Source of the DNA: Rhizaria sp. SCN 62-66
Lineage: Eukaryota
Assembly: GCA_001724265.1 (NCBI GenBank)
Contig: MEDY01000073.1
Coordinates: 62,001-126,000 of the forward strand
DNA length: 64,000 nt
Direction: 5' to 3'
Shown here: piece after piece, positions 8,128 to 64,000 of the stretch
Numbering within the stretch: the stretch's first letter is position 1
Layout of the letters: every line of letters begins with the position of its first letter
Notes under the pieces: model-generated
What the model was told of the DNA's origin: nothing
What the model saw: only the letters and a program-made list of their open reading frames with translations
Database searches by the model: none
Position numbers and translations under genes: made by a program

Positions 8128-8183
<56 letters not shown>

Positions 8184-22900: not shown

Positions 22901-23975
22901 TTGGCCCAGCGCCTGGCGCAGCGCCGCCCGCGGCAGCGGCGTCGGCGTCGGCGTCAGCGTCGGCGTCGGCGGGGTAGTTGGTGACCGTGAGCATCGGCAC
23001 AAGACCCTTCGTGCGCGGTAAGTACCCCACGTCGCTCGGGCTGCCTTCACCCAGCTCGCGCAGCACAGGCCCGTCGTTGCCGATCGCCGAGTCCGCAGCG
23101 CTCGCAGCGGCAGCGGCTGTAGCGTTGCTGTTGCTGCTTTTGTCTGTGGTGCGGGGCCGCTTGGCAAGGGCGAGCGCGGCGGCGTTGGCGCGCGCGGCGA
23201 GCGCGGCGACGGCCTTGTCAGGCACGCCCGCGGCGCGGAGACGTTCGCGCACGAACGGGTGATTGGTGCGGACGTCGAGCGCGACGACCTGCGCCAGCGC
23301 CGAGACGCCGCGGTCGGTGCGGCCGCAGCGCGTGTAGTTGGCCGAAGTAATGCCACCAACGGGGATCAGACACGTCTCCTCCAGCGCCGCGAAGAGTGCG
23401 CCCTCGACCGTCTTGGCCTGCGCCTGGTGAGAGAAGCCCGCGTAGTCGGCGCCCAGGTACGAGAGCTTGAGCGCGATGCGCCGGCGCCGCACCTGCGACC
23501 AGTCCAGCTTCGCGCGCGTCACGGCAGAGGCGCCGACGCGGCGCGCGGCCGCGCGGGTCTCCGGGGCCGCCTCGACAGGGGCAGCGGCGACAGCAGCAAC
23601 AACATTCGGAGCAGCAGCGGCTGCGGCAGTAGTTGCTGTTGCGACAGGCCGGGGCAGGGTTGCGTCGGCGGAGGCGTCGTGCGCGGCCGCGGCCGACGTG
23701 CGAGGAATCTTGGTCGGCGCGCAGTCGGGCACGCGGTCAGACGTCGCCGTGTGCACAGGTGACGTCACAGCAGGACTCGCAGTCGCAAGCACCTGTCTAG
23801 CGACGGAGGTGAGCGCGGAGCGGGCGTCGGACTCCGAGATGGAGCACTCGGCGGAGAGCAAGAGGGCACGGAGAGTGTCGATGTCAAGCTCGCGCAACTC
23901 GCGGGCGCGGGCCTCGATGTTGGCTGTTGATGGCGGCACGGCGCCTGAAGCGGAGGCGGCATTGGAGAAAGACAT
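19959..23975 (-). CDS. PUS3: tRNA pseudouridine(38/39) synthase, TruA family (Pus3/Deg1), 1235 aa; exons 23975-21504, 21351-20450, 20292-19959
   Basis: RRIALKLSYLG..CGRTDRGVSA (catalytic Asp), LNQRLPADIRV, FSARFSC..RTYKYFF, GRHDFRNLC, AFLYHQVRCMMAVLFLVG, and KPVYQLAPDAPLVLWD after splicing. Introns 21352-21503 and 20293-20449 are GT-AG and frame-restoring. Confidence 0.92.
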
Positions 23976-24461
23976 GGCTGCTGACTGCGGAAGTGCGGCC
24001 CTGCTGACTCCTCTAAAATGAGAATAAATGTTGAATAGGAGAATATAATAAAAATAAGAAATGTAATCATACGGATTAAATCTATTGATCTCACATACAT
24101 ACCCACTGACGGATTCCTCATGGTGTATTGCTTCGTTTCCGAAGTGCGCACCCCGTCTTTGACTCCGGCGGCGGTCGGGCGCAGCAAGTAGCAGAGCGTA
24201 GGCGGACATTGAGTTCGCTGTATCTCAACAAGCAATCGACATCATGAAGCATGGTAACTATATATCTATATATGCGCTAATTTAAACATTGTTTTTTAAA
24301 TTATATTCCGCAAAAGTGTTTTTTGTCGTCGCAGGCTGCTCATAAATGCCCCCCTCCTAACACCCTCGTGCCTACGTTCCCCCTTTCCTTAGGCAGATCG
24401 CCACACCTTTCAACATTTGCCACAAGATCTTGCACTAATATCATACGAGTGTAAACACGCA

Positions 24462-44200: not shown

Positions 44201-46896
44201 GCCTGGAGTGCGGCGGCGTCGGCGGCCTGCGCCGACTCGGCGGCGGCGACGGCTGCCTGACGCCGGCGCGCGGCCTGGCCCGCGGCCGCGTCGGCCCACG
44301 ACGAGCCCGCGCCCGCACCCGCGCCAGCGCCACCGATCGAGCCGGAACCGGAGACGGAGCTGGGAGAGGTCGCCGACGAAGTTGCAGCCACAGCGGCCGC
44401 GATCGCGGCAGCGGTGTGGTCGTCTGCGGACGCAGTGGTGGAGCCGCTGGTCGAGTTGGCGAGAGAGAGCGTCTGCACGGCCTGCGCGTCCGCGGCGACG
44501 GCCGCCGCCGAGGTGGGCGTGCCCACGTTGCGCGGCGACTTAGATGTGAACTGCGCCAGCGTCATCACCGCCGAGTCGCTGTCCACCAGCCCAGCGCCAG
44601 TGGCCGGACCGGAGCCCGAGCCCGAGCCGGAGCCTGAGCCGGAGCTTGTGGAGCTGGTGGTGGCGACAGGCGAGGTCGCAATCTGCTTTCTCTCGGTGTT
44701 ATCGCCCGCGCCATTGTTCGCTGCTGTGTCGCAGCCGCTCATTGTGTTGGACGTCGCGAGGGTGAGCTCGGTGATTGCCTTGGCGGGCCGCTGCTGCTTG
44801 CTGCCGTTGCCGTTGCCGGTGTTCTCATCCTCATCGTCCTCCTCGTCGTAGAACTCGTCGTAGCCCTCGGCGATGCGCCCCACACCGCCCGCGCCGGCGC
44901 CTGCGACCGCGCCGGGGACGGCAAAGGAGGGCCGCGCGTGGACCGAGGCGCGGCGCGGGGCCGTGAACTCGTTGAAGGCCGCAGTCACCACGTCCACGCT
45001 CGCGCTGGGGCTCGGCGCCGCGCATCCGGGGCTGGTGCAGTCAACCTCCGCGCCGCTGGGGCTCGCCGCCGCGGACGGGGACTGCGACGCGGCCGCAGCA
45101 GCGGCGGCGGCGGCGCCCGACTCGGCCGCGGTCACGCTCGCGGTCGCGCTGGGCTGCGGCTCCGGCGGCTCGCTCTGCGCGGCCGCGGCGATGGCGGCGA
45201 GCTCGGCCGCCGTGTAGATCATTGCGTCCGAGTCGCCGAAGAGGTCCGCGAAGTTCTGCTGCAGCAGTGCGTCGTCCTCAGCGTCGGTGCCCAGCGCGTT
45301 CTCCTCGTCGTTCTCGCCGCCCTCCGCGCCGCCGCCGCCGGGCCCGCGCGCGGCGTCGCAGTCGCTACCGTCGCTGTCGTCGGCCTCGCTGTCGTTCACG
45401 AACTCCAGCTCGTCGCCCGCGGCGCCGTGGCGGCGCCGGCGCGCGCGGTCGTGCTCGGCGGGCAGCGGGACACCCGCGGCGGCGGCCTGCAGGGCCTCGC
45501 TGGTGTGCGCCTGGCCTAGGTCAGGCCCGGGGCCCGCGCGCTTGAGTCGCATCTGCCGCTCCAGCTGCCAGTTGAAGACGCGCGCCATGAGCTCGCCAGA
45601 GTCCGCCCCCAGCACTCGCTCCGCAGCCTCCATCGCCTCGCGCGCCGCCGCGTCCGCGCCGGAGGCCACGCCAAACAGCGACACGGTCACGCCGCCCGCG
45701 GCGCCGCTTGCGCCGGAGGCGGAGCCGTTGGTATTGTTGCCGTTGAGATTGTTGAAGCTGCCGGCCGCGCTGGGCGACGCCGCGCCCGACGGGTCAGAGC
45801 CCGAGCCGGAGCCGGCTCCACTGGCAGCGCCCGCAGCGGCGGCGCCGTTGGCGGAGCCCCACCCGGAGGGCGCAGGAGAGGCGAGTCCGGCGGCGGCCTG
45901 CGCGGCGGCGGCGGCGTCGCCCCCAGCCGCGGCCACGGCGGCGGCGGCTGCGGAGGCGACCTGCTGGCGGTAGTTGTGGCCGGCTTCCCAGAGCGCGACG
46001 CCCTCATCGGGCGACACGGAAGAGTCCCGCAGCAGCGCGCGGACCTCCTGCGCGGAGCAGCCCTGCGCGTAGCCCAACAGCACGCGCAGCAGCAGGGGGT
46101 TGTTGCGCGCGGGCTGCGCGAACTCGAGCGTCTTGGCCAGCACCGTGTTGACCAGCACCTCAGTCAGCATCGTCATGAGCGCCGCGCAGCTGCGGTCCGA
46201 AGCGCCCAGTAGGCGGTGCAGCAGCGCGGGCACGAGCCGGTACAGGTACGTCGTGAGCGCGCGCGCGTCGACTGCGCCCGGGTGCATCGTGGGGAACTGC
46301 GTGCAGTCGCGGTGCGCCGTGTATACGGCCTCGCGCGGCGACAGCGGGACAGGCTCGCCGCGGTGCCGCGCCGCCGACTGCGCGACCTTAAGCGCCGTGG
46401 TGGCCGTCCACGCCGTGTTGGCCGGGTCCGCCACAATCGCCCCGCGCAGCGCCTCCTCCGCGCGCGCGGCCGCCGAGGTAACCAGGAAGTGCGCCCAGTC
46501 AATGTGCGCAGCGCGCATGGCCACGGTGCCCACGCAGCGGTCCGCGATGGCGCGGATGTCGTTGAGGAGCGTCTCGTTGTGCGAGATTGAGGGCACGTAC
46601 CACGTCTCGACGTAGTACGCGATGCAGAACTCCACGACGCGCCACAGCGAGGACCGCAGCGCAGGATCCGCCACCGTGTCGTCCAGCGTCAGGTACCGCT
46701 CGTGCACCACGGGCGGCGCGTCGCGCACGCCCGGGCGGCCGCCGCCGCCGCCGCCGCGCTCTGAGTTGCGCGACGAGTCGCCGGCCTTGGCCTCGATGGC
46801 GAGAACCTAGAGCTCGCTGAAGTAGACCATTAGGTACGCGGCAACGCACACGGACGCCACAATCAGGGCGCCAAACTCGAACAACAGTGAGAGCAT
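41251..46896 (-). CDS. PXA-PX-Nexin_C sorting nexin (SNX13/14/19/25, Mdm1-like), 1881 aa, with in-frame TAG at codon 30 (46807-46809)
   Basis: N-terminal TM (MLSLLFEFGALIVASVCVAAYLMVYF), PXA (YYVETWYVPSIS..LTEVLVNTVL), PX at about 43560-43950 (WVIYRRYSHFEALH..FPTKRVFGSFDAPFIQARRLELQAYI), Nexin_C (LLDEVLEL..WVRRQI..IWP..LFPEM). No RGS domain seen. Confidence 0.9.
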
Positions 46897-50481: not shown

Positions 50482-52625
50482 GGACCGCAACAGGGGCTGC
50501 AGTAGCAGACGCGGAGGCGGGCTCCTCGGCAGAGGCGCCCTCGAAGCCCCAGTTCTCGTCGTCGTCATCGTCTTTGTCTCCGGCGGCGACGGCGGGCGCA
50601 GGAGCAGCAGCTTCGGGCGCGCCTTCGTCTGGAGCGTCGAAGTCGCCGAACTCTTCATCATCGTCGTCATTATTGCTGTTTTTGGTGCTGCCGCTGCTCT
50701 CGGCAGCGTTGTCCACAGTCGCTGCCTCGGCAGCGGGCTCAGTCGCTGCCTCGGCAGCGGGCTGGGCAAGCGCGGCCGCGTCGGCAGCCAAATCGAACTC
50801 GGCGTCCATCGCCGCGGGAGACGCGGCCGCGCCGGAGTCCGCGGATTCGAACGCGGCGTCGCCGAACTCAGCGTCCTCGTCGTCGTTTTCGCAAACGGCA
50901 GCAGCGCCAGAGGTGGCCGTGGTGTCGACGGTGGACGCACAGCTCTCGGCCGCCGCCGCCTCGGCCGCAGCCGCCTCGGTCACCGCCGCCTCGGGCTCCG
51001 GGGCGACTGCGTCCGCCGCAGCCGCAGCTGCAGGTTTAAACTCGGTCTCCGCAGAGGCGGAGGCAGAAACAGGAGACACCTCGACCGGCGCCGCACCGGC
51101 GTAGGAGAACTCGGCGCCGCCGTCACCCGCAGCCGCAGACGCGCTGCCGCAGTCGGTGGCAGCAGCCGTGACCTCGGGCTCCGTCTCGATAGGCTCCGTT
51201 ACGCCAGCCTCAGCCTCGGCCTCGGCCTCGGTCTCGGTCTGGGGCTGGGGCTCGGTCTCTGCACCGGAGGCAGCGGCCGCGGGCTACGCAGCGGACTCCG
51301 TAGCGGCGGACTCCGTAGCGGTGAACTCCGTAGCGGCGGACTCGAACGCGGCGCCCTCAAATTCGTCGTCGTGGACCTCGCCGACGGTGGTCGCCGCACC
51401 GAGGTCAGCGGCATCGGCATCAGCATCCGCCTCGACAGCGGCCGCAGCGGCCTCAGCAGCGGCATCTTCAGCATCTGCAGCTGCCTTTGCTGCAATAGCA
51501 GACGCCTCGGCAGCGGCAGCTGCAGCAGCGGCAGCGACAGCCTCCTCCTCAGCCTTGACGCGAGCAGCCTCTTCAGCAGCAGTAGCCACCGCAGCAGCTT
51601 CTGCAGCTGCAGCTTCCTCAGCAGCAGCGGCCGCTGCGGCAGCGGCATCTTCTTCAGTCTTTTTGGCAGCCTCCGCTGCTTCTGCAGCGACCTTAGCCTC
51701 GGCAGCAGCAGCCTCAGCGGCAGCAGCTGCCACCTCCGCCTCAGCGACCGCCTTCGCCTCAGCGACCGCCTTCGCCTCAGCGACCGCCTTCGCCTCAGCG
51801 TCCGCCTTCGCCTCTGCTGCCTCAACCTCCGCCGCATCAGCAGCCTCTGCGGCGGCGGCAGCCTCTGCGGCGGCGGCAGCCTCTGCGGCGGCGGCAGCCT
51901 CTGCGGCGGCGGCAGCCGGCAGCCTCTGCGGCGGCGGCAGCCTCTGCGGCGGCGGCAACCTCTGCGGCGGCGGCAGCCTTTGCGGCGATAACGCGCGCCG
52001 TCTCAGCTTCTGCCTCAACAGCCATGCGAGCCGCTTCGGCCTCCTGCTCGGCCTTGATGCGCGCCGCCTCAGCTTCTGCCTCGGCAGCAGCCGCGGCATC
52101 AGTCTCGGCCTTAGCTTCGGCAGCCGCCTTAGCCGCAGCATCAGCTTCAGCTTTTGCAGCAGCCGCCTCGGCCTCGGCCTTTGCAGCAGCTTCCGCATCA
52201 ACGATTGCAGCTGCGTCGGCGCTCACTGCACCCGCGGCATCGTCAAAGCCCCATCCCTCCTCCTTGTCGCCAGCGGTGAGGGGTGCCACAACAGGGGCTG
52301 GTGCCACGACGGACTCTATGACAGGATCGGATCCCGCTGGAGAGGCTTCGAAGTCGCCAAAGTCATCGTCTTCGCTAGCTACATGCCCCATAAGACTCAC
52401 TGCAGCAGCTGGGGTAGGAGCAGGCGATGCGGGGGTTTCCGGCACGGCAGCGGCCGCCTCATCAAAGTCGAAGTCAAAGTCCTCTTCCTTGGCAACTGCT
52501 TTGTCAGCATCAGCAGGCGCTGGAGCGGGAGCGGAAGCGACATCAGGGCTGGCAACACCGTGCTGCACTGAAGGCTGGGTCGGCACTTCGTCGTCAAAAC
52601 CGAAGCCCCAATCTTCCTCAGCCAT
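49490..52625 (-). CDS. Acidic Ala/Glu-rich protein with repeated DFGDF/WGF motifs (aftiphilin/gamma-synergin-like adaptor-binding protein); one frameshift at about 51915 and in-frame TAG at 51284
   Basis: ORFs 52625-51837, 52201-51284 and 51079-49490. The last two are in frame across one TAG; the first two are offset at a truncated repeat unit. Motifs EDWGFGF, DDFGDF, EGWGF, EEFGDF, ENWGF, EDFGDFGAF, EDFGDFGSF. Confidence 0.7.
50415..50480. repeat. (GGCGCG)11 microsatellite encoding an Ala-Pro repeat on the minus strand
   Basis: Perfect hexamer array read directly. Confidence 0.95.
51735..51985. repeat. Coding 18-bp tandem repeats (AEAKAV x3; EAAAAA about x7) with one truncated unit
   Basis: Units CGCCTCAGCGACCGCCTT and GGCAGCCTCTGCGGCGGC; a 7-nt partial unit GGCAGCC at 51911-51917. 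Confidence 0.9.
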
Positions 52626-53464
52626 GGTTCAGGGATGTGTGAATTGCAGCTTGGGCTTGATCGATCTTCTGAGCGTTTGAGTGAGGTTGTTTTTCTACGA
52701 AAAAAAGGCGCATCATTTGCAAGATACATGTCAGAATTATCACAACATAGTTTGACGCTACCATGAGCTACAGATAACCCGACTAAACGCCGTATGCCGA
52801 TCAGTATAGCGCATATAATATGGATTCAAGCAGGGTGTCGCCCAAGTGCTGATACGCTGACACAGCCCACCACACAAACATGCAAACAACAAAGCAACTG
52901 CTCCATCGACCAGAATGATAATCGTAGAATCAATTGATGTATTGAGCCAAAAAGGAATTGGTGTGCACAGTTTTACAATATAGAGTTAAAGTCCACTAAC
53001 GAGGTTACGGCGTTTAAAAACAAAACAATTGCTACTTTGAGGGGTGACGCTGTGTTACACGTTTGTTCACATTAAAAATCAAGTTGTTGCGTAACGAAAG
53101 GAGCAGAAAAAAAACAACAAATACAGAGTAGAGATTAAAAAATAAGAGGACTATGACCAAAAACACACAATAACAAGCGTATCAACAGATGATAAGAGAT
53201 CTGGGGAACTTAAATCAGACAGTCATGTCGAAACATGTGTCCATGCGCTAAATTGACTCGCTTGCTGCGTTTTGTGCGTGCAAAAAACAAACACATGCAT
53301 CGTACAAGATTTTAAGCGCGTTGTAGCATTGATATTGGCGAATGAATGAGTGCTAGACAATGTTCACATGAGTCGAGCAATCATAAACAAATACGTCTCG
53401 ACATCGAAGCGTGGGTGCGCACTCAACTGCAACACTTACGTGCCACAGAGAAGCAGGCGCCGTC

Positions 53465-56400
53465 TCACGCGATGGGATCGATACGTTCGGCAATGCGGGC
53501 GTCAGGCACGCCGAGCGCGCGCAGCGCGTGGCGCACATAGCCCACGACGTCGGCGGGGCCGGCGACGAAGACGAACTGGCCGTCCCACACCGCGTGCAAC
53601 TGCGAGCCAGCGGGCTCGCGCGGCAGCTCAGCGCCCCCCGCGCGCGCGTTGGCGGGCGTAACGCCAATGAAGCTCAACGGGTTCGAGTCGGGCGCGAGCG
53701 TGGGCAGCGCTGACAGCAGCGCGGCCGCGGTGGGCAGGCCCGCCAGCGCGCGCGGCTGCGCCATGTGTCCGCGCAGCAGCTCGCGGTGCGTGACGAGCGC
53801 CAGCGCGGCCTCGGCGTCGCTGAGTGCGGACGCGGGGATGTCGGCCGTAACGCCCGCCTCGGCCGCGTCTTGCAGCGCCATCGCGGCGACCGCGGGCAGC
53901 TGCAGCGGCGCCACCTCGGCGTCGGGAGCGGGCGGCGTCATCTGGCGCCCGTTGCTCAGCGCAACGGGCATCACAGTGGCGGTGCCGGTGGCGTTCAGCA
54001 GCGGCATGAGTGACACCGCGACGCTGGCGGGCGGCATCAGCGGCGTATATGCGTTGTTGCGCGCGACAGAGCCCGGCAGCGCGGCGGGACGCAGCACCTC
54101 CATGTCCTTGAGGTGCGAGCCGAACGACAGCGGCAGCATGTAGTCCATGTGCAGGCACGCCACGGCACACGCATGTAGGGCCACGCCGTGGGCCGAGGTG
54201 CCGCTGCCGGCGCCGCGCCCGAGACCCGGCAGCGGGTGTTTTTCGCGCGCAAGGTTGAGCGACGACAGGAAGCTCGCCACGCCCAGCGCTGCCGTCGTGC
54301 CGCAAGTGATCGTGAGCAGACGCGCGGGCAGCGCCAGCAGCGGCGGCAGCTGACGCAGCAGCAGGGGCGCAGCGGAGGCACGCGCCGCGGCGGCTGCGGC
54401 GGACGTGGAGAGAGCCGACGGCAGCACGGGCGAGTAGGCCTCGCCCAGCAGGTCGTGCTCGACGCCGACGGCACAGCCCACCGTCAGCGGCAACGGCAGC
54501 GGGGTGTTGGAGCGCATCGCACCGCCAGCGAAGGCGAAGTGCGTGCCCAGCCACGCCGCGGCCGGGATCGCGGCTACGAAAGTAAGCGGCGCGTTGGCCG
54601 ACATGAAGCGCGTCTGGCGCGCCGCGCGCTGCATCTGCGCAGCGGCGACGACGGGCGAGGTGACGCCCGTCGCGGCCGACGCGGGGCCGGCGCGGAAACT
54701 CGCGTTGATCCCGGCCGATGAGGCCAGACGCTCGAACTTGCCCGACGCGCGCGGCTGCATCACCTTCTCGAACTTGACTGCCGCGGTCTCGCCCGCTGAG
54801 CCTGTTGTGCCGGAGTTCGAGGCTGACGACGTCGACGCCGTTGTGGAACCGCCGGCAGCGCCGTCGCCCTTGCTGTTGCGCGCGCCGCCCGCGGGGAACG
54901 GGCTGCCTGAGCGGCGCATCGGCGGGCTGGGCGGGCGTACGCCGGACTTGCCGCCTTCGCCGGCCTCGCCGTCGTCGTCCACAAAGGACTTGCGCGCGCC
55001 GGGCGTGCGCGTCGGGGCATCGCGCACACTGTCGTCATCCGAGCCATCTTCATCGTCGCTGCCTGCGGGCGTGGGGTGCTCCATGTCCGCGCGCAGCTCG
55101 CCGTTCTGCGAGATGATGTTCACGGCGCCGTCGCCCAGGATGCTCACGCGCTTGCTCAGCTTCACCGCAGCGCGGTTTACCGCGGGCGGTGAGAAGACGA
55201 GCAGTGCGGTCATCTGCTGGCGCAGCGGCGCAGCGCCACCAGCGCCACGCATGATGGCGCCCGCGTGGGCCTGCACCACGGGCGGGGGGCCCATGGCCGC
55301 CGCCGCCGCCGCAGCGGTCGCCGCGGAGGAGCGGCTGCCGCGCGGCGACGCGCCGGGCAAGGTCGCGGCCGCGGGCGACGACATGCTCAGAGCGGGCCGC
55401 AGCGAGAGTTGGGTGAGAGCAAAGGCGCTGAGCAAGGTTTGCTGCGGCGCAACCTCTGAGCCAGGGGCCGCGAATGCGGTCGCCAGGTGGTGTCCCGAAG
55501 CCGTGACCGAGGTGACCTGAGAGCGCAGCGGCGACGAGGAGCCGGGCAGCGCGAGCGAGACCTGTGGCGGGGAGAAGAGGCGAATGAGCGTGGCCAGATC
55601 CATTGGCTGCGAGGAGCCGTTGGGCGACGGCGCCTTGGTGCGCAGGGCCGTGTTGAGGCACGAACGCGGAATCTCAAGGCGCACGAGCACGTACTCGTCG
55701 CTCTCGGCCGTCTGGTCAATACAGCGCGCCGTGCAGAAGACGAGCGAGCCCGCGGGCAGCGTGGCGCTGCGCAGCGGCGAGAAGAAAAGCGACGACGCCG
55801 CCGAGTTGGCGTGGATCGACGCGACGTTGGTGAGTGCGGCGCGGCGCTCGGCGGACGCCGTCGCCGTCTGTGCGTGCGAGGGCTGCGGGAAGCGGTCCAG
55901 GAAGAGCGAGAGACGCTGGCCGTGGACGTGCGAAAGGCGCGAGAAAGAGGTCATGTGGTATGTGACGTAGCGCATGAACCACGACCACGACTCGCGCGCG
56001 AAGAGCCACTCAGGGTCGACTTCCTTGATGGCCTTGCGGATCCACGGGAAAACGTGGTAAGAGCACAACCAGAAGAGCGCGTCCGCGTCCTTGCGCGTCC
56101 ACGCCGTGCCCAGCACGGCCGACAGCGACGCGGACATACACGAGAGCAGCCACGTGCCAAACGACTCGTCACGCGTCGCAGAGATCACGCGACGACGGCG
56201 CTGCTTGAGCAAGTCTTGGTGCTCCACCGACGCCTCGGCAGCGCGCTCCACGTTCGCGTCGAGGATGCGGCGCGAGCGTGCCTCAGACCAACCGTCGGGC
56301 GCGGCGGGGCTACTGCCGTTGCGCTGGGGCGCGTTGGCCGAGGGCGAGCTCGGCTCGGCGGCCTCATCTTCGGCGCGCTCGTCGAAGACAGCGGCGGCCG

Positions 56401-59400
56401 CAGCCATCGCGGCTTCTTCCTCCTCCTCGAGCATGACGCGTGCGGCCTTAAGTCCGTCTAGCACGGCGGCGGCGGCGACGGCCGAGACCTCGGCGCCGGC
56501 AAAGCTGCGGCCGTCGATAAAGAGCTCCCTGGGCGCGCGGTGCGTGGGCTCCATGACCAGCAGCTCGGGGTCGAACTGGTAGCCAGCGAGGCGCTCCGCG
56601 ATCGCCTGCACGCGCGCACGCGCTTGGTGGGCGTTGCTGGTGTCACCCATCATGACGGTGTAGAGCACGGCCTCCCAAAGGAGCTCCAGCTGCGTGTGCA
56701 CGTGCATCGGGCCCAGCTTCTGCAGACCCGCGCGGCGGTTCGTCATGATCTCGGGCGACATCTCACACAGCGACGATGGCACCAGCGGCAGGTTCGTGAA
56801 GAAGGACGTCACCGCGGGCGCCGCCATCGGGTGGTCACCGCTCGCCGTGCCGGGCTTCACGACGTCCTCTTCCTCCTCCTCCTCCTCGGGCTTGTCCTCG
56901 CCGTCGTCCTCGACCTCGGCCGTGCTGGGCGACATCAGCGAGCCTCCCGGCGTGGTGCCGCGCGAGTCGTTGACGTGCGAGATCACCGGCGCGGCCAGCG
57001 GCGGCAGCGACTTAAGCGCGCTCTCGCCGGGACGGCGCCCGCCGGGGCGCTGGTTGCGCGCGGCTGCGGCAGCCTCTTCGGCGCGCTCCTTCTCGCGCTC
57101 ACGCTCGCGCTCAGACTTGCTGCTGCGCTCACGGTCACGGTCACGGTCACGGGAGCGGTCATCGCGGCCACCACGGCGGTCGCTACGGCGGTCGCGGTCC
57201 CGGTCGCCGCCGCGGCGAGCGCGGCGGTCGTCGTAGTCGTCCTCGCTCGACTCGGAGTCTGACGAGTCGTCGTCGTAGCGGCGCCGCGAGTGGCGCGAGC
57301 GGTCCTTGCCCCGACGATCACGGTCACGGCGGCTCTTCTTGCCGTCGCGGTCGCGGCGGTCGCCACGGTCCTTCATGCCGCCGCGGAGTGCGGGACCGGC
57401 GAGCGCGGCGGCCGCGTTAGCAGCCTCAGCGGCGGCCTTGGCAGCGCGCGCGGCACGGGCCTCGGCGTTGCGCGCCGCGGCGGGAACGGACGCGAGCGTA
57501 CCATTGTCGCTGATGCCGACGTCCTTGGGGAAGCACGTCACCACCATCATCGTGAAGAGCAGTTGCGTGAGTGTACCCTTCGGGAACTGCGCGGGAATCA
57601 TCGGCATCACGGTTGAATCCGCAGCCGTGGTCACAGGGGCGTTCTGAGCAGCGGTGCCGTCCGCAGCAGGGGCCGCAGCGTCTTCAGCGCCCTGTACCTT
57701 TGCCTCAGCGTCGCCAGTCTTAGCCTCGTCAGCAGCCTCAGTCTTGGCGCTAGCCTTGCCGGGAGCAGCGGCAGCGGCCTTAAGCAGCATGTTGAAAAGT
57801 ACGCCAAGACTTGCGACCTCGAGGTCAGACTCCCCTTCGCCGCCAGCAACGGCACCCGCAGTGATGCACCCGCCCGCGGCGAGCGAGAGCATCATTACGG
57901 CAGGGCCCTCGACGGGCGCGCGCAAGTGCAGCTGCGTGAGCGAGGTGTGGTGCACGAAGGGCACAAGTTGCGACGCCAGCAGGTCGCGCGCGAGCGCACG
58001 CTGGTTCGACACCGACAGCGGCATCATGGTCGGGATGTGAAGGTACGTCAGCGCGGGCGCGGGCAGGATCGCGGGGAATGTGTTGCGCATGGCGCGGCGC
58101 AGCGTGGTGCACGAAGAGGCCATCCGGATGGCCTCATCCTCGGCACTGATGTGCGCGGCGATGACGTTGACGGCACGCTGCACGACCCAGACCCACGCCC
58201 AGAGGGCGCGGTTGGAGGCCATGAGCAAGCCCTGCTCGCCCAGCGTCTCGAGTGTCTGCGCGATCGTGTCCAGGAAGGCGTCGGCGAGGTGGAAGAGGTC
58301 CGCCAACGTAAGCGCGTAGTCCGCCATGAGCCCGCGGTACAGGGTAATCAGCGTCGCGTGCACGATGTCGGCGTTGAGGCCGTCGATCTCCACCGGAGTT
58401 ACGTCCATCACGCTCGGCGCGTTGAGCCACGACCACTTGCGTCCCGCCGCGGGCTCGGTGGGACGGCCGCCCACTGCCATCGCAGCGGCAGCGGCAGCGG
58501 CGTCGTCCTTGGCACGCTGCGCAGCGGGCACGGGCGGGACGCTGTGGCGCGTAAGGCCCGCGCTGGCGATTTGCGCCGCGCTGTGGGCGACAAAGCCCCA
58601 GAGCCGGCCGATCACGGTCTGCGAGTCGCGCACCAGCATCGCCAGCGTGCGGTCCTTGTCGGCCTGCGTCACGGCGGCCAGCTTCTGCGCAGCAGACGCG
58701 GCGACGGCCGTCTTGGTCGCCAGGTGCTGCGTCGAGATGGTCTTGGCGTGCGCGGCGGCCATCGATGCCGTCATCGCGGCGTCGACAATACCGGGCGAGC
58801 CAGGCAAGGCGAGGTCCTGCTGGTGCTTCTCGCGCAGCGCCTGTTCGTGCGCGTACGCGTTGGCGGCTGCTGCAGCGGCCGCAGTGGCCTCGGCAGTAGC
58901 CTTCTCGGCGGCCTCAATCTGCAGCACCTTGCCTGCGCGCACGGCAGTCTCCGCGGCCTTCTCGAAGGCCGGACGCACGGCGTTGCATCGCAGCTCAGCG
59001 TTCTCGATGATCTTGCGCACGTGCTTGGGCAGCTGCGCCTCGAGCGAGTGCCACGACTGCGTAACTTGGTTGACGAGCGCGTCGCGCGCGCGCTGGCGCG
59101 TGACGGAGTGGTCTTGCTCCTGCATGCCTTCGATCATGCATACAATGATGAAGTCGAACACCCACTGCATGGCGTTGGCGTGGTCGGGGTGCCACCCCTC
59201 GTAGGCCTTGCTCACAGTCTCCAGAAACAGCACGCTGTGCAGCTCGAACGACTCAGGCGGCGCGTTGTACGCGACGTGGCGCTTGCCGATCTCGCGCAGG
59301 TGGCGCACCAGTCCTGCCGGGTCCGTTGGCAGGCGCTCGATGACGTCGCCGACCGTCGCCATAAATGACGCCTGCACGGCCTCCATGTCTGAGTGACGGA

Positions 59401-62400
59401 ACAGTCCGGCGACCTCGGGCGAGAGACGGAACATCTGCGTGTAGAAGGCCTTCGATGTGATTTTGGCCTTGCGCGAGATGCGCTGCCATACGTCCTTAGC
59501 CAGCTCCATGCGGCGCTGGAAAGGGCGGTCCATGTGGCTGGCGTCATGCGTCCCGTCGGCGTCGGCCAGCGACTGGTTCGGCATCAGCGATGCCGCCGCA
59601 ATGAGGCGCGACGCGTACGCGCGGTGAAACGCGGCCAGACGCGGCGCCATGGCGGACGGCGGCGTATCCTCAACGTCGTCGAAGGACGCGCTAGGGCCGT
59701 GGCCCTGATGCACGCCACGCATGTGCTCGAACAGCTTCGCCTGGCGACGCGAGCGGTGGAAGCGCAGCGTCCAGTCACCGTTGTAGCAGTACGCCTGCGG
59801 GCCCTCCTGCAGCTCAGACGCTGGCAGCGGGCCGCCGATGCCGCCGGGACCGGAGCCCACAGAGCCGAGCAGGTGGTGCGCAGCGCCAGGGGCGCCGGGC
59901 TGGCCGGGGGCGCCGGGCTGCTGACCGTCCTTGCCCTGCTGCGCGGCATCCTTGCCCTGTTGGGCGGCGGCATCTTTGCCGTCTTTGCCCTTGCCATCCT
60001 TATTGTCAGCAGCGGCGGCGCCAGTGGCGGGCGCGTCAGCCAACTCGTCGAGGTTGTCGATACCGTTAAGCGCATTAGCGGCGGCCTCGGCCAGCGCGGC
60101 CTGCTTAGCGCGCTCCTCGGCGCGGCGGCGCTGCTTGGCGCGCGTGGCGTAGAGCTGCTTCACTGAGCCGACCAGCGCGGCCTCGAAGCTCTGGAAGAAG
60201 CTGAGGCGCACGGCGTAGCGCAGGTGCGACACACCGAGCTTGGCAAGGTACTCTTCGAGTCCAAGGCGCGCGTACAGCGTCGCCATCGACTCGTGCAGCG
60301 GCGTGCGGAGCTTGACACCCATCACGGTCGCGATCTGCGCCGGCAGCCCGTCATCGGGCGACGCGTGCGGTGCAGCGCTCGAGCCGGGCGTCGCAATCGA
60401 CGCCAGCGACGGCCGTCCGCTTTGCGCGCTGGACGCCGCGGGCGCAGCCTCGGGGGCGGCGGGAGTGGCGGGCGTCACGGGGGCTGCAGCGGACTTGCTG
60501 CGGCCCTTGCTGTTCTCACGGCCGTCCTTGCTCTCGTCGCCGAGCTTGCCCGACGTGGCAGCGCCGCGGCCGCGGCCCTTGTCCGAGCTGCCGGTGCGCT
60601 CGTCAGCGAGGTTGCGCGTCGTGCCCGTGCGGCGGCCGTGCGTGACGACATCAGGACCACGGTCCTTTCTACTCTTGCTGCCACTGGCGCCAGAGTTGTT
60701 GACGGCGGCGGCGAAGCCCTCGGGGCGCGCGCAGAACTCGCTAGCAATGAGGTCGTCGACGTTGCGCTGGGTGATGTCCATCATCTCGCGCACGACGAAC
60801 TCGACGGCGTTGACGATGACTTGCGTGTGGGAGTCCAGGCGACGGCCAGCGAAGAGCGCTAGCGTGCGCTTGTCGAGCAGGAAGAGACGGCGTAGCAACA
60901 TGTGGTTCACAGTCGACTGCAACGTCTTGCGCGATTCAGAGTCGGCGTTGTTGTTAGTATTGTTTCCGCGGTTGTTGCCCGCCGTCGCGCGCTGCACTTC
61001 CGCGTTGGCGCCACTGCCGGGCGGCCCCTGGTCGGAGCGCGCAGCGGCCTGCTGCGCAGTGACGGTAGACAGGTGCTTGGCAAAGGCCAGAATCGCGGGG
61101 AAATCCTTGGCGGCCTTGGCGATGACAGCAGTGGGCAGCACAGACCACGCGGCGGAGTGCTTAAGGTCGTGCTTGGCCGACTGCGCGAGACCGAGGCGCG
61201 CGACGGCAGAGCGCGAGTGCGTGCCCGACCGATCGTCCTCTTCGTCGCTCTCGTCCGAGTCCTCCAGCACGACGGTCGACGACCAGTCGCGCCAGATCTG
61301 GTCCAGGTACTCGCTGCGCAGCGCGTGGCTCCACCCGGACTGCACGTCCTCGTCCAGACCGACCCAGTTGGTCGCCGTCACACCGGGCGCCAGCGGCGCC
61401 AACGGAGATGTCGCAGACGCCAGACGCTTGAACGGGCAGCCACCGGACCCCATCGCGACGCCCTCGCTCGCCGCAGCGGCCGCAGCCGCCGCGGGGGCGG
61501 AGGGCGCCGCGTCGCGACCGAGCTTCTTGGTGCCAAGACCGGGAGACAGCGGCGTGGCGGACACGTTCGCGGCGGATGCACTCGCGGCGGGAGGCGCGTC
61601 GTCGGCCTCGACGGGCGCAACGCGGCGCTCGGGCGACAGCGCGCGCGCGACGACGCTGCCCGACGCGAGCGTCGCGTGCACCGTCGTCAGCGCGGGGCCC
61701 GCGCCGCCGAGGCCCGCGGGCGCGAGAAGGGGTGCCGACGCAGCGATCGTCGCGGCGATTGCGGCCACGGGCGCGGTGCCCAACAGCGCCGCGCGCGCCT
61801 TCGCGAGCTGGCGCACTCGGGACGACAACGACGAAGACGACGCAGACGCCGCACTAGGGGCAGCGCCGAGCTTGCCGCCCAGCAGCGCCGCATCCAGGTG
61901 AGCGAGGTTCGCAGACACGGTGCCGGTGCCGCTGTGCAGCGCAGTGAGGAGACGCGAGCGCTGCTGCGCCAGCGGTGTTGCAGCCGCGGGCGTGGCGGTC
62001 TCGTCGGGGACGTTGGGCGTGGCTTCACCAGCTAGGGACTCGACGGCGGTCGCATTGCCACCGGCCGCGGCAGTCGCAGCGGCTGCAGCCGCGTTGGCGG
62101 CGTGCGAGCCGAGCACGACAACCGCGGCCATGATGTGTGGCGGCAGCGCGTTGGTGGGCACTCTCGCGGACATGTCGCACGCCAGCGCCGAGGCGGGCGT
62201 CGTGGCGTGTGAGGAGCGCGAGTGTGCTGACTTGAGCATCGTCGCAAAAGACGCCGCCCCGCCAGCCGGAGGAGAGCTCGACAAGCGGCTGATGCTGTTG
62301 GCGTGCGAGCTAGCGCTGGTGAAGGAACTGTTCGAGTCTTGGCGGTGGAACGCGGAGCCGGTGCCGATGTCCACGGTGCCGAAGCCAATGCGCGCGCCGC

Positions 62401-64000
62401 CGATTGGCAGCGCCATGTCATCCGTGGTCGTCGCCACGCCGCCCGCGCTGGACCCGGCCGCGGCGCCGGAACGCGAACGGATCTCGGGCCGCGCAGAGTT
62501 GGAGCGCCCGACGACGGGGCCCGCGACGGGCACGCGGCCCATCGCAGCGTCATTCTGCGCCGCGGCGGCGGCCGCCTGCGAGCAGGCCGCGGAGGACGCC
62601 GCGAGTGTGTTGGCAGCGATGATCGAGGCGCACGCGAAGCGGTTGCCCACGAGCGGGTCGGCAACGGAGGACAGCGCGAGGGAAGCAAAGACGTCGAGGT
62701 CCACTGCTGTGTCGGCCACGGGGCACACACCACCCACGTCGGCCTCAGTGTCGTCCGTCTGACGCGGGCCCTTATCCGCGCCGGCACCCGTCGTCGCAGA
62801 GGCACTGGGGCCCACGGGCGGGCGCGGTACGTTGGCACCAGTCAGCGTCGCCGCGGGGCGGCCCAGAGTCCCAGGCCCGTCGCGCGCAACGAATGGGCAC
62901 TTGCCGGCAGGCATCGCGTTCCGGCCACCAGCAGCGGCAGTCGCGGCGCCGATGCCCGCGGCAGACGCGGCGGCGGCGACAGCAGCGGCGTTGGCGGCGG
63001 CGTTGACGCCATTGGCAGTCGCGCCGCCCTTGACCAGCGCCGTGTTGATGCCCGCAAGTGCGCTGTCGGCGCCATTCTGCGCGGTGACGTGGCCGGGCAG
63101 CGTGACGGGCGAGTGGCGCAGCGCGGTGGCTGCGCCCTCGCGCATGCACGCGCAGACATAGACGAGCGCCTGCAGCCAAGCATCGGCCACACGCGGACCC
63201 ACGTGTTCGCGGCTATGGTTGATCGAGTCTCCGGGATGCGACGACGTCAGCGACGAGTGCGAATGCTGGGGCGAGTGGGGCGCGCCAACGACAGTCGCGT
63301 CGCACGCCAACTGCTCGGAGCCCATGCGTGACAGCGGCGGCGTCGGGTTCACAGTGCCACTGGTGAAGCGGCCGACGCTGACGTTGCCCTGCACAGCCAC
63401 AGATGCGGACGGCATCTGCGCAGCACAGATCACCGCAGCAGAGGCTGCCGCCGCAGCAGCAGACTCACGCAGAGTGGCGTCGCCACCGGACATCGCAATC
63501 TTCTGCATAAATGGGCCAAACGGGAGCATGTAGGCCGTGCGACGGCTGTTGATGTCAGCAACGGAGGGATCAATCCAGTCATCACCCATTGCGAACTGCA
63601 GCAAGCACAACATGACAAATGCGAGGCCGGCAAACGTGTCCGACTGTACGCGGTAATACACAGCGTGGCGACCACCGCACTGCTCCAGCGCCGACACGCG
63701 GCGGCGGTCCAGCACGGAGAGCGCGTCATCGCCGGGCGCCGTGTGTGCGAGCGCGGCAAGGTAGTCCTGGGACTGACGCGCGAGATGCGCCTGGCGCGTG
63801 TGCGCGGCAAGCGGCAGCGAGAAGGTCTGCGCGACGAGCACTGCCGCGGCCTCGCAGTGCTGCACCTGGTCCACGTTCTGCATCAGCAGACGCGACTCAG
63901 GGTGGATGGCGTAGAAGGAGCGGAAGATGATCTCGCTGCGGGTCAGCGCGCGCAATGCACGGCTCCAAGTCGCGCGCAGCTGCACGACGACGTCGTCGTT
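53465..64000 (-). CDS. Giant multi-globin protein with degenerate C-terminal FNR/cytochrome b5 reductase-like module, >3500 aa, 5'-truncated
   Basis: Open frame to the window edge. Clear globin at about 59120-59510 (AFYTQMFRLSPEVAGLF..LREIGKRHVAY..W..A..W..), further globin-like units at about 63135-63990, 60160-61165, 58150-59075 and 56030-57600. C-terminus FVFVAGPADVVGYVRHALRALGVPDARI resembles an NAD-binding domain end. Confidence 0.8.
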   Translation of the reverse strand, partial: NDDVVVQLRATWSRALRALTRSEIIFRSFYAIHPESRLLMQNVDQVQHCEAAAVLVAQTFSLPLAAHTRQAHLARQSQDYLAALAHTAPGDDALSVLDRRRVSALEQCGGRHAVYYRVQSDTFAGLAFVMLCLLQFAMGDDWIDPSVADINSRRTAYMLPFGPFMQKIAMSGGDATLRESAAAAAASAAVICAAQMPSASVAVQGNVSVGRFTSGTVNPTPPLSRMGSEQLACDATVVGAPHSPQHSHSSLTSSHPGDSINHSREHVGPRVADAWLQALVYVCACMREGAATALRHSPVTLPGHVTAQNGADSALAGINTALVKGGATANGVNAAANAAAVAAAASAAGIGAATAAAGGRNAMPAGKCPFVARDGPGTLGRPAATLTGANVPRPPVGPSASATTGAGADKGPRQTDDTEADVGGVCPVADTAVDLDVFASLALSSVADPLVGNRFACASIIAANTLAASSAACSQAAAAAAQNDAAMGRVPVAGPVVGRSNSARPEIRSRSGAAAGSSAGGVATTTDDMALPIGGARIGFGTVDIGTGSAFHRQDSNSSFTSASSHANSISRLSSSPPAGGAASFATMLKSAHSRSSHATTPASALACDMSARVPTNALPPHIMAAVVVLGSHAANAAAAAATAAAGGNATAVESLAGEATPNVPDETATPAAATPLAQQRSRLLTALHSGTGTVSANLAHLDAALLGGKLGAAPSAASASSSSLSSRVRQLAKARAALLGTAPVAAIAATIAASAPLLAPAGLGGAGPALTTVHATLASGSVVARALSPERRVAPVEADDAPPAASASAANVSATPLSPGLGTKKLGRDAAPSAPAAAAAAAASEGVAMGSGGCPFKRLASATSPLAPLAPGVTATNWVGLDEDVQSGWSHALRSEYLDQIWRDWSSTVVLEDSDESDEEDDRSGTHSRSAVARLGLAQSAKHDLKHSAAWSVLPTAVIAKAAKDFPAILAFAKHLSTVTAQQAAARSDQGPPGSGANAEVQRATAGNNRGNNTNNNADSESRKTLQSTVNHMLLRRLFLLDKRTLALFAGRRLDSHTQVIVNAVEFVVREMMDITQRNVDDLIASEFCARPEGFAAAVNNSGASGSKSRKDRGPDVVTHGRRTGTTRNLADERTGSSDKGRGRGAATSGKLGDESKDGRENSKGRSKSAAAPVTPATPAAPEAAPAASSAQSGRPSLASIATPGSSAAPHASPDDGLPAQIATVMGVKLRTPLHESMATLYARLGLEEYLAKLGVSHLRYAVRLSFFQSFEAALVGSVKQLYATRAKQRRRAEERAKQAALAEAAANALNGIDNLDELADAPATGAAAADNKDGKGKDGKDAAAQQGKDAAQQGKDGQQPGAPGQPGAPGAAHHLLGSVGSGPGGIGGPLPASELQEGPQAYCYNGDWTLRFHRSRRQAKLFEHMRGVHQGHGPSASFDDVEDTPPSAMAPRLAAFHRAYASRLIAAASLMPNQSLADADGTHDASHMDRPFQRRMELAKDVWQRISRKAKITSKAFYTQMFRLSPEVAGLFRHSDMEAVQASFMATVGDVIERLPTDPAGLVRHLREIGKRHVAYNAPPESFELHSVLFLETVSKAYEGWHPDHANAMQWVFDFIIVCMIEGMQEQDHSVTRQRARDALVNQVTQSWHSLEAQLPKHVRKIIENAELRCNAVRPAFEKAAETAVRAGKVLQIEAAEKATAEATAAAAAAANAYAHEQALREKHQQDLALPGSPGIVDAAMTASMAAAHAKTISTQHLATKTAVAASAAQKLAAVTQADKDRTLAMLVRDSQTVIGRLWGFVAHSAAQIASAGLTRHSVPPVPAAQRAKDDAAAAAAAMAVGGRPTEPAAGRKWSWLNAPSVMDVTPVEIDGLNADIVHATLITLYRGLMADYALTLADLFHLADAFLDTIAQTLETLGEQGLLMASNRALWAWVWVVQRAVNVIAAHISAEDEAIRMASSCTTLRRAMRNTFPAILPAPALTYLHIPTMMPLSVSNQRALARDLLASQLVPFVHHTSLTQLHLRAPVEGPAVMMLSLAAGGCITAGAVAGGEGESDLEVASLGVLFNMLLKAAAAAPGKASAKTEAADEAKTGDAEAKVQGAEDAAAPAADGTAAQNAPVTTAADSTVMPMIPAQFPKGTLTQLLFTMMVVTCFPKDVGISDNGTLASVPAAARNAEARAARAAKAAAEAANAAAALAGPALRGGMKDRGDRRDRDGKKSRRDRDRRGKDRSRHSRRRYDDDSSDSESSEDDYDDRRARRGGDRDRDRRSDRRGGRDDRSRDRDRDRERSSKSEREREREKERAEEAAAAARNQRPGGRRPGESALKSLPPLAAPVISHVNDSRGTTPGGSLMSPSTAEVEDDGEDKPEEEEEEEDVVKPGTASGDHPMAAPAVTSFFTNLPLVPSSLCEMSPEIMTNRRAGLQKLGPMHVHTQLELLWEAVLYTVMMGDTSNAHQARARVQAIAERLAGYQFDPELLVMEPTHRAPRELFIDGRSFAGAEVSAVAAAAVLDGLKAARVMLEEEEEAAMAAAAAVFDERAEDEAAEPSSPSANAPQRNGSSPAAPDGWSEARSRRILDANVERAAEASVEHQDLLKQRRRRVISATRDESFGTWLLSCMSASLSAVLGTAWTRKDADALFWLCSYHVFPWIRKAIKEVDPEWLFARESWSWFMRYVTYHMTSFSRLSHVHGQRLSLFLDRFPQPSHAQTATASAERRAALTNVASIHANSAASSLFFSPLRSATLPAGSLVFCTARCIDQTAESDEYVLVRLEIPRSCLNTALRTKAPSPNGSSQPMDLATLIRLFSPPQVSLALPGSSSPLRSQVTSVTASGHHLATAFAAPGSEVAPQQTLLSAFALTQLSLRPALSMSSPAAATLPGASPRGSRSSAATAAAAAAAMGPPPVVQAHAGAIMRGAGGAAPLRQQMTALLVFSPPAVNRAAVKLSKRVSILGDGAVNIISQNGELRADMEHPTPAGSDDEDGSDDDSVRDAPTRTPGARKSFVDDDGEAGEGGKSGVRPPSPPMRRSGSPFPAGGARNSKGDGAAGGSTTASTSSASNSGTTGSAGETAAVKFEKVMQPRASGKFERLASSAGINASFRAGPASAATGVTSPVVAAAQMQRAARQTRFMSANAPLTFVAAIPAAAWLGTHFAFAGGAMRSNTPLPLPLTVGCAVGVEHDLLGEAYSPVLPSALSTSAAAAAARASAAPLLLRQLPPLLALPARLLTITCGTTAALGVASFLSSLNLAREKHPLPGLGRGAGSGTSAHGVALHACAVACLHMDYMLPLSFGSHLKDMEVLRPAALPGSVARNNAYTPLMPPASVAVSLMPLLNATGTATVMPVALSNGRQMTPPAPDAEVAPLQLPAVAAMALQDAAEAGVTADIPASALSDAEAALALVTHRELLRGHMAQPRALAGLPTAAALLSALPTLAPDSNPLSFIGVTPANARAGGAELPREPAGSQLHAVWDGQFVFVAGPADVVGYVRHALRALGVPDARIAERIDPIA

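Follow-up and report, generated by a model that had tools for sequence, protein, structure and literature searches.

What kind of protein spreads globin-like units over several thousand residues, and how many of these units are real globins? The question is raised by a giant open reading frame (ORF) found at the end of a DNA stretch of 64,000 nucleotides (positions 62,001 to 126,000 of contig MEDY01000073.1, assembly GCA_001724265.1, deposited as Rhizaria sp. SCN 62-66), hereafter called the window. The ORF occupies positions 53465..64000 of the minus strand, comprises 3,511 codons followed by a stop codon at 53465-53467 and is open at its 5' end, at the window edge. A preliminary description of the locus had proposed at least five globin-like units within it, and the five that it listed are referred to here as U1 to U5, counted from the N-terminal side. 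Three of the five (U1-U3) indeed score as globins, while the remaining two (U4 and U5) are suggestive only. The motifs and coordinates listed in that description were all exact, i.e. AFY (aa 1518-1520), PEVAGLF (1528-1534), GKRH with its His at aa 1575 (nt 59276-59278), GGRHAVYY (109-116), LGVSHLRY (1255-1262), VTQSW (1646-1650) and LGTAWT/DALFW (2630-2644). The units are separated by 200-600 aa and interrupted by inserts of 40-270 aa, and the sole compact one is U3.

The protein encoded by the ORF was compared with an orthologue of 5,548 residues (P0003) and with the other colinear orthologues, which form the cluster P0154/P0004/P0153. The overall architecture favoured here, and held to be moderately probable, is that of a giant, expanded relative of the flavohaemoglobins, with partly dead globins and a C-terminal tail resembling the NAD-binding domain of ferredoxin reductases (FNR).

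A canonical globin in the giant protein

The globin criteria were taken from the passages of PMC4101818 that deal with them (fold-recognition score, His at F8 and alignment of helices BC-G). U3 (aa 1496-1643; 59072..59515, minus strand) is compact and canonical, a 3/3 globin belonging to the flavohaemoglobin (F) family, with Tyr1520 at B10, Phe1534 at CD1 and His1575 at F8 (nt 59276-59278); the conserved Gln1543 occupies E7 or a neighbouring position. It matched the Pfam Globin family (PF00042) with 28.2 bits (E 2.9e-6; cut-off 22) and, in the PDB, entries 3s1i (E 2.4e-5), 3ubc (E ~3e-5) and 3wfw, all of which are titled 'hemoglobin-like flavoprotein'. An hhalign comparison with an alignment of 76 single-domain globins taken from the matches gave a probability of 99.9% (E 4e-31) over 130 columns. 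The preliminary description had already assigned a compact unit at about 59120-59510 to the flavohaemoglobin/single-domain globin pattern, and the Pfam, PDB and hhalign results for U3 confirm this. On these sequence grounds U3 is a bona fide globin, and it is predicted to bind haem b and to react with oxygen (O2) or nitric oxide (NO).

A search of representative sequences with the window protein returned 325 proteins at E<=0.001, and all 150 listed matches overlap U3. Fusions of a globin with a cyclase, kinase, RGS, MCP or CheW domain are frequent in this set. Just before U3, at window positions 59615-59659 (aa 1448-1462), there is a non-globin block, PSAMAPRLAAFHRAY, which is conserved in all orthologues.

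Two insert-split globin homologues

U1 (aa 4-293; 63122..63991, minus strand) has His at E7 and F8 (RH, aa 111-112) and Phe at B10, and is split by one insert in the E-F region and by about 120 aa between helices G and H. Its helices A-G (aa 5-144) were matched by hhalign with a probability of 95.1% (E 3e-8), a second comparison gave 95.3%, and helix H was found separately at aa 265-290 (score 25.4). A local globin hidden Markov model (HMM) matched two parts of the same unit, aa 101-143 and 265-297. Both His112 and His48 are invariant in the comparison with P0003.

U2 (aa 883-1294; 60119..61354, minus strand) is likewise split, with an A-like helix at 883-906, helices B-E at 1031-1075, an insert of about 150 aa, and helices F-G at 1228-1294, within which lies the proximal His1259. 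The hhalign probability was 91.5% (E 8.8e-7) for aa 1228-1284 (helices E-G), with a second, colinear match at aa 1030-1074 (score 26.6); helix H was not recognised in U2. With 20.7 bits (E 6e-4), the F-G part also came just short of the Pfam Globin cut-off of 22. The CD1 Phe is kept (LALF, Phe1050), and together with His1259 it is unchanged in all three orthologues. The PDB profile search made with the U2-region alignment matched globins solely through the U3 part of P0154, and none of these matches addressed U2 alone.

Judged by these profile comparisons, both U1 and U2 are homologous to globins and retain the proximal His; haem b binding and reactivity towards O2 or NO are probable for both. 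The F8 His of U1 (His112), U2 (His1259) and U3 (His1575) is invariant in all orthologues aligned. It had been proposed that the units containing GGRHAVYY (U1) and LGVSHLRY (U2) retain this residue and are split by long inserts, with which both hhalign and the orthologue alignments agree.

Candidate pseudo-globins

U4 (aa 1641-1951; 58148..59080, minus strand) and U5 (aa 2139-2658; 56027..57586, minus strand) are probable pseudo-globins, each recognised through two weak colinear hhalign matches. U4 begins with helices A-B/C (1641-1682); an Ala-rich insert separates these from an E-like helix (1786-1803), and a further insert separates the latter from an F-G-H-like part (1880-1951). In U5, about 270 aa of low-complexity sequence lie between a B/C-like helix (2139-2155) and an E-like one (2433-2445); then come an F helix with FG corner, IAERLAGYQFDPELL (2467-2481), an insert of about 130 aa and helices G-H (2617-2658). 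The U5 string IAERLAGYQFDPELL matches the F-helix/FG-corner consensus LG.RH..YGV.PE.F residue for residue, except that His is replaced by Leu.

With the alignment of 76 globins, U4 scored 24.7 (aa 1894-1918) and 24.6 (aa 1642-1681), and U5 scored 25.1 (aa 2602-2641) and 16.7 (F helix); with a broader alignment the values were 26.7 and 23.7 for U4 and 27.6 and 20.6, again colinear, for U5. The order of the matches is correct in both units (A-B/C then F/G in U4; C-F then G in U5; scores 21-28). In all, 58 hhalign controls were run, of which 42 were tiles of unrelated window ORFs (maximum 16.1) and 16 were reversed-alignment comparisons (maximum 19.0); C-terminal control blocks scored 11.5-12.3 against the globin alignments. 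As a single sequence, U5 scored 20.8 against a null maximum of 16.1. P0003, taken alone, matched globins at the same two places (aa 4363-4411 and 4604-4638). Further comparisons made with the U4/U5-region alignments matched globins only at the U3 remnant with which P0004 starts, and are uninformative on U4 and U5 themselves.

The F8 position of U4 is occupied by Leu, with Tyr and Val in the orthologues, while in U5 it is Leu in all three orthologues. This bears out two earlier statements, namely that U4 and U5 lack an obvious proximal His (Leu or another residue takes its place in all three orthologues) and that the protein mixes haem-ligand-bearing globins (U1-U3) with probable pseudo-globins. 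At CD1 neither U4 nor U5 can be aligned reliably. Taken together, the profile matches make it reasonably probable that U4 and U5 are each globin-derived, in which case they would be haem-free pseudo-globins kept for structure or interaction.

Two side observations concern this part of the chain. Just after U4, at window positions 58000-58140 (aa ~1955-2000), lies a further non-globin block, ..YP...PAPA..Y..IP.., conserved in all orthologues. Within U5, aa 2207-2309 (57074..57382, minus strand) form a low-complexity insert rich in Arg, Asp, Ser and Glu (RDRDR.., SEREREREKE), which resembles RS/RD-type regions and gave compositional matches to DHX15 and RNase E. This insert is lineage-specific, and P0003 has only a short Lys/Arg-rich stretch there. 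More generally, the Ala/Ser/Pro-rich and Arg/Asp-rich inserts, absent or short in the 52% GC orthologue, may be regarded as disordered, lineage-specific spacers.

The conserved block and the reductase-like C-terminus

The most conserved block of the protein (aa 2605-2856; 55433..56188, minus strand) takes in helices G-H of U5 together with helical sequence rich in Trp and Cys and a strand-rich segment. Identity over this block is 41-43% to P0154/P0004 and 36% to P0003, and 40 columns are invariant. The strand-rich segment (SLFFSPLR..YVLVRLEIPR) sits where a flavohaemoglobin would carry its barrel binding flavin adenine dinucleotide (FAD); by this position and its strand-like character, aa 2737-2790 could correspond to such a barrel.

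The chain ends with a domain that resembles the NAD(P)-binding domain of the FNR family (aa 3225-3511; 53468..54328, minus strand), a likeness suggested by hhalign and motifs and unremarked in the preliminary description, which appears to tie the protein to the flavohaemoglobins. Three motifs occur in order, LLTITCG..LGV (3228), H.DY (3284) and FVFVAGP...LGVP..RI (3476-3503), and are invariant in three orthologues. Against an alignment of six FNR-module sequences, aa 3463-3508 gave an hhalign probability of 55.7% (E 1.2e-4, score 38.9), and the whole C-terminal span holding this part scored 39.9, whereas other blocks scored 11.3-18.9. The six-sequence alignment improved on a comparison of the C-terminus with the single sequence P0090 (E 0.03). 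A weak colinear match (E 0.4) falls at LLTITCG..LGV, where the glycine-rich loop normally sits, and this nucleotide loop is replaced by T-C-G-x. The named ESM Atlas neighbours of the C-terminus all carry NAD_binding_1, at low scores (0.78-0.80), and the NCBIfam model of the PaaE reductase touches aa 3476-3504 (E 0.17). For the tail, neither a PDB match (with the alignment profile) nor Pfam NAD_binding_1 was found. The last 46 residues thus appear to resemble the end of a ferredoxin-reductase NAD-binding domain. The motif-by-motif likeness of the tail to the Escherichia coli flavohaemoglobin, Hmp, serves as a lead only.

The presence of such a tail invites the idea of an active NO dioxygenase of the flavohaemoglobin type, whose C-terminal reductase would pass electrons in cis to the globin haem(s). 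U3 has the B10 Tyr, the F8 His and the conserved Gln at or next to E7 that would suit this activity, and its best NCBIfam model is 'NO-inducible flavohemoprotein' (E 1.3e-3, far under the model cut-off). However, the reductase-proximal globin, U5, is without a proximal His in all orthologues, the glycine-rich loop has given way to T-C-G-x, the FAD-binding domain is undetectable and about 1,600 residues lie between U3 and the tail, which makes an enzyme of this kind very improbable. With Leu at F8 and without the nucleotide loop, the terminal module of globin plus reductase is more readily seen as a catalytically dead flavohaemoglobin.

Globin-derived units and the weight of the evidence

The supposition that more units lie beyond the window was borne out by P0003, in which three further globin-like stretches occur upstream: aa 1-88 together with 207-230; aa 1224-1312 (hhalign 92.9%; Pfam 22.5 bits, just over the cut-off); and aa 1723-1832 (local globin profile and hhalign). 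Since these three add to the five units of the window protein, the family would have at least eight globin-derived units.

A number of results weigh against the architecture favoured here. In Pfam searches, for which the window protein was divided into 23 tiles and the orthologue into its first 1,330 residues and 28 tiles of 300 aa, Globin was found in 3 of the 23 window-protein tiles (covering U2 and U3) and in none of the 28 orthologue tiles of 300 aa, even across the orthologue's U3. Pfam was silent on U1, for which PDB sequence and profile searches also gave no globin, and CD1 of U1 is Met, as in both orthologues, at a position where Phe is invariant in a reference alignment of 59 globins. 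A phmmer comparison of six unit segments with the whole protein gave no cross-matches. Neither Pfam, PDB (sequence and profile) nor ESM Atlas (searched with the compact orthologue U5) gave a globin for U4 or U5, the hhalign probabilities of which are just 8-13%, far under accepted thresholds; the single-sequence U4 tile scored 12.6, within the null range. AlphaFold2 modelling of U4 from a three-sequence alignment gave a predicted local distance difference test (pLDDT) value of 46.0 and a predicted template modelling score of 0.24, i.e. an unusable model, and that of a compact orthologue segment covering U4 and U5 gave a pLDDT of 35.5, again too low for the fold to be judged. When the latter model was compared with the PDB by Foldseek, nothing reached E<=0.001 and the matches seen were generic helical repeats. 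At the C-terminus, the FAD-binding domain (FAD_binding_6) was undetected by Pfam, by PDB profile search and by hhalign against FNR modules, and the FNR match is confined to the last 46 residues. Finally, the independent orthologues number only two, and conservation statistics are consequently thin.

Several of these points would fit a simpler protein with three globins only (U1-U3), in which U4, U5 and the tail are unrelated helical or disordered sequence whose patterns arose by chance. The low hhalign probabilities, the U4 tile inside the null range, the lack of Pfam, PDB or Atlas support and the two poor AlphaFold2 models all speak for it, and amphipathic helical sequence can mimic globin helices. 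On the other hand, U4 and U5 have two matches each, in the right N-to-C order and above all 58 controls, and P0003 independently matches the same two places. The F-helix/FG-corner string of U5 fits the globin consensus except for the change of His to Leu, and the FNR tail was found at E 1.2e-4. We therefore regard the three-globin alternative as rather unlikely and retain the expanded flavohaemoglobin-like architecture.

As for the origin of the units, recent tandem duplication was ruled out by the absent phmmer cross-matches. The units are mutually unrecognisable, and thus the duplication, if it happened, was ancient; serial duplication is suggested by the shared family and was not seen directly.

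Extent and reality of the gene

U1 aligns to residue 2888 of P0003, and thus about 2,900 residues of the window protein are missing upstream. The ORF at 53465..64000 accordingly represents the C-terminal part of one protein of roughly 6,400-7,300 residues overall. The length could reach the higher figure (~7,300 residues) if inserts are as abundant upstream of the window as within it.

Could such a frame be an artefact, i.e. a chance frame in GC-rich DNA or a product of chimeric metagenome assembly? The window derives from a metagenome, 39 ORFs of at least 100 aa overlap the same 10-kb region (GC-rich DNA yields many long spurious ORFs), and contigs show many low-complexity 'joints'. Nevertheless, GC content at third codon positions (GC3) is 0.79-0.88 in all eleven 300-codon blocks of the ORF, against 0.45-0.68 at second positions, so that the frame-specific bias is sustained across 3,511 codons. 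Ten conserved blocks are colinear between the window protein and its two independent relatives, one of which is encoded in 52% GC DNA, and the gene of P0003 forms an unbroken 4,230-codon frame in DNA of 49-52% GC, ended only by the edge of the retrieved locus. The GC3 bias, the block order in two relatives and the long P0003 frame at 49-52% GC together show that the ORF is not a chance frame of GC-rich DNA. Long error-free contigs from independent runs also span the region: for instance, contigs of 2.8, 2.2 and 2.0 kb from run X2 showed 0 differences. An artefact is thus effectively refuted already, and the ORF is a genuine gene, conserved along the whole chain.

Short contigs of the polyA metatranscriptome X5 are spread along the ORF with 0-1 differences; they give no more than a hint of transcription, because a contig does not demonstrate a transcript. 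RNA-library contigs leave 52500-53267 and 57492-58259 uncovered, which is no evidence either way. The listed contig 'joints' were considered as introns and rejected: in every case the sides are 20-22 letters long and lie within GC/Ala-codon repeats, and the joints were taken as assembly noise. A metagenome scan for further orthologues yielded one relative among 158 pattern matches, which was the P0003 contig itself. Searches for homologues of a length near that of aa 1200-1700, and for longer homologues with an orthologue alignment, gave none; the known orthologues were likewise missed by them.

Proposed role

The following course of events may be envisaged. An F-family globin would have been serially duplicated ahead of a ferredoxin-reductase-like tail; the copies would then have diverged past mutual recognition, and long lineage-specific low-complexity inserts would have pulled them apart. 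In the resulting protein, apparently cytosolic, U3 and probably also U1, U2 and the upstream units would hold haem b and react with O2 or NO, while U4 and U5 would be haem-free and retained for structure or interaction. With the reductase module dead, any redox chemistry would need a reductase in trans. The most likely role suggested by these features is that of a multi-haem scaffold that binds gas or buffers haem; a sensor coupled to an enzyme is less likely.

A globin-coupled gas sensor, a reading raised in the preliminary description, was nevertheless weighed. Its output would come from a domain that escaped recognition, or from a partner that the conserved non-globin blocks recruit. The haem-ligand-bearing domains adjoin strongly conserved non-haem blocks (e.g. 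aa 2605-2856), the globin fusions noted above are frequent among the U3 matches, and oxygen-sensing adenylate cyclases are reported from trypanosomatids (PMC7719234). However, Pfam found no signalling or enzymatic output domain in the 23 tiles of the window protein (whose N-terminal half lies beyond the window) or in the 1,330 residues and 28 tiles of the full-length orthologue, nor was any other known domain recognised. The structures closest to U3 belong to single-domain globins of the F family and not to sensor globins. A sensor of this design is therefore improbable.

A more far-reaching version of the scaffold proposal may be put forward tentatively, as a possibility that we would not favour. 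It holds that the protein represents an undescribed class in uncultured protists, with at least eight anciently duplicated flavohaemoglobin-type folds, both haem-binding and haem-free, joined by disordered linkers and followed by a dead reductase. Such a protein might store or buffer haem, or sense O2/NO at several sites, and would not be an enzyme; Cys-Pro-Phe (CPF) motifs of the linkers would serve as additional transient haem sites.

CPF occurs twice in the linkers of the window protein, at 62891-62902 (aa 367-370, KCPF) and 61430-61441 (aa 854-857, GCPF), and three times in P0003 (aa 2523, 3277 and 4265), in the context [GK]CPF and, twice in P0003, CPF[FM].GAM. By composition, about 0.05 occurrences would be expected by chance in the window protein (2 observed) and about 0.13 in P0003 (3 observed). 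The plain CP dipeptide is not enriched (3 observed versus 1.9 expected in the window protein, and 4 versus 3.9 in P0003). These motifs resemble haem-regulatory Cys-Pro motifs; alternatively, they could represent the C-helix 'P..F' of additional cryptic units.

Host organism and genomic surroundings

The host is an uncultured, GC-rich, intron-poor microbial eukaryote from wastewater and bioreactor metagenomes. The neighbouring genes are eukaryotic, and those recognised by Pfam encode an ankyrin-repeat protein (6490-12696, plus strand), a DUF7906 protein (13565-19045, minus strand), a pseudouridine synthase (21015-24209, minus strand) and a sorting nexin with the domain order PXA-PX-Nexin_C (41251-46728, minus strand). 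The genes of the window are long and apparently intron-free, coding GC of ~0.70-0.77 alternating with spacers of 0.50-0.57. The base composition of the window is accordingly mosaic, 2-kb bins ranging from 0.50 to 0.77 GC with the high bins over long ORFs. No tRNA genes and no Rfam families at gathering score were found across the 64-kb window.

The Pfam-supported large ORFs lie on the plus strand in 1-12696 and on the minus strand in 13565-64000, with a switch between ~12.7 and 13.6 kb. This arrangement resembles directional gene clusters placed head to head; the ORFs between 27 and 40 kb are ambiguous.

Six sequencing runs (X1-X6) from four studies of bioreactors, wastewater and activated sludge contain a fraction of 0.30-1.00 of the sampled words; X1 is possibly the source, and X5 is the polyA-selected metatranscriptome (word share 0.44). 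Several of the best multi-domain matches to U3 come from Euglenozoa (Bodo, Papus and Sulcionema).

Beside the orthologue gene, at 13507-17142 (minus strand) of locus L001, there is an ORF of 1,211 aa with faint importin/exportin-like Pfam matches (Cse1, E 0.025). It is unlike anything recognised beside the window gene, and synteny was not shown.

Comparison with known systems

Globins are among the best studied protein folds, and the known multi-domain globins are, to our knowledge, almost without exception orderly tandem arrays of functional domains. Parts of the literature consulted describe several multi-domain globins: the sea-urchin 14-domain globin XP_001199205.2 (2,146 aa), the 9-domain haemoglobin of Artemia and the 2-domain haemoglobin of Daphnia (PMC4527676), and the multi-domain globins of annelids, molluscs and nematodes (PMC4503718). 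The layout of the window protein had been proposed to match no described protein. This held for the exact layout, no description of a protein so dispersed and degenerate having been found in the literature on protist, kinetoplastid, diplonemid and multi-domain globins, with supplementary files outside the scope of the search; it did not hold for the general idea, as covalently linked multi-globins are known and predicted euglenozoan giants mix strong and weak domains. Multi-domain globins are thus known, whereas the dispersed, degenerate layout of the window protein was not matched in the literature searched.

Like the window protein, the animal multi-domain haemoglobins carry many globins per polypeptide, and echinoderm polyglobins (P0011, P0012 and P0073) are among the U3 matches. 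In the sea-urchin protein, as described in PMC4527676, the compact tandem domains keep the Mb-fold and the F8 His, whereas in the window protein one unit of five is compact and two of five are without His. A different kind of polyglobin is represented by the metagenomic P0002 (2,461 aa), which contains 14 near-identical canonical globin repeats in tandem, bears the source label 'hemoglobin-like flavoprotein' and is evidently the product of recent amplification; P0155 (metagenome, 3,326 aa) belongs to the same 90% cluster.

Among protists, the Guillardia theta chimeras EKX33177.1 and EKX39126.1 have three globins and a putative N-terminal cytochrome b5, as reported in the relevant passages of PMC4101818. 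They are alike in being large proteins (>1,000 aa) with diverged globins, and one of their domains is without helix H, as apparently is U2. They differ in being much smaller, in having cytochrome b5 and not an FNR-like module as partner, and in keeping the F8 His in all six domains described there.

The predicted, uncharacterised giants of Bodo saltans (CUG06439.1, P0007), Papus ankaliazontas (P0008) and Sulcionema specki (P0005) also mix strong and weak globins. P0008 (3,690 aa) has 11 globin-profile matches ranging from 0.3 to 116 bits, and P0005 (1,208 aa) has 7; both derive from euglenozoan transcriptomes. In P0008, about 1,300 residues between its arrays (aa 1933-3277) contain no detectable globin, and the ends of both P0008 (two stretches) and P0005 look cytochrome b5-like when the sequence is judged by eye. 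A precedent for a globins-plus-reductase design is provided by the Chrysoparadoxa australica protein CAM9185847.1 (P0090), which combines several globins with FAD and NAD domains. Neither P0090 nor the three giants are orthologues, as they match via U3 only, and their domains are mostly compact and adjacent. Compared with the giants, the window family is far more diverged and much richer in inserts, and its reductase is eroded.

A precedent for a haem-free globin module in a redox protein is the nitric oxide synthase of Synechococcus, in which, according to the part of bioRxiv 10.1101/2025.08.15.670619 consulted, an eight-helix pseudo-globin free of haem stands beside a haem-binding globin and an FNR module; it belongs to a different family and has a single pseudo-globin. 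Globin-coupled sensors differ in that no output domain was recognised by Pfam in the window protein or in the orthologue tiles. Androglobin, a permuted globin in a calpain-like protein, was considered and dropped, as neither a protease domain nor a permutation was seen.

The closest relatives of U3 are Hmp and the single-domain F-family globins (Hell's Gate globin I, 3s1i/3ubc, and the Chloroflexus globin, 3wfw), with which it shares Tyr at B10, Phe at CD1 and His at F8. Hmp is a protein of about 400 aa consisting of one globin, an FAD barrel and an NAD domain, and the C-terminal order of the window protein, globin followed by an FNR-like part, mirrors it. It differs from the window protein, which appears to have at least five globin-derived units over 3,500 residues, and which has a lost nucleotide loop, an undetectable FAD domain and a reductase-proximal globin (U5) with Leu at F8 in all three orthologues.

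If the proposed architecture is true, the protein would offer a natural series of stages of globin-fold decay or re-purposing within one polypeptide, and would add a lineage of environmental microbial eukaryotes to the short list of those with giant chimeric globins. U1, U2 and U3 would allow one to ask how much divergence and insertion a globin tolerates while binding haem. What would set the window protein apart from the known systems is the occurrence of a canonical globin beside insert-split and His-less copies, a reductase remnant at the end, the best conservation in the His-less part, and a length of more than 6,000 residues.

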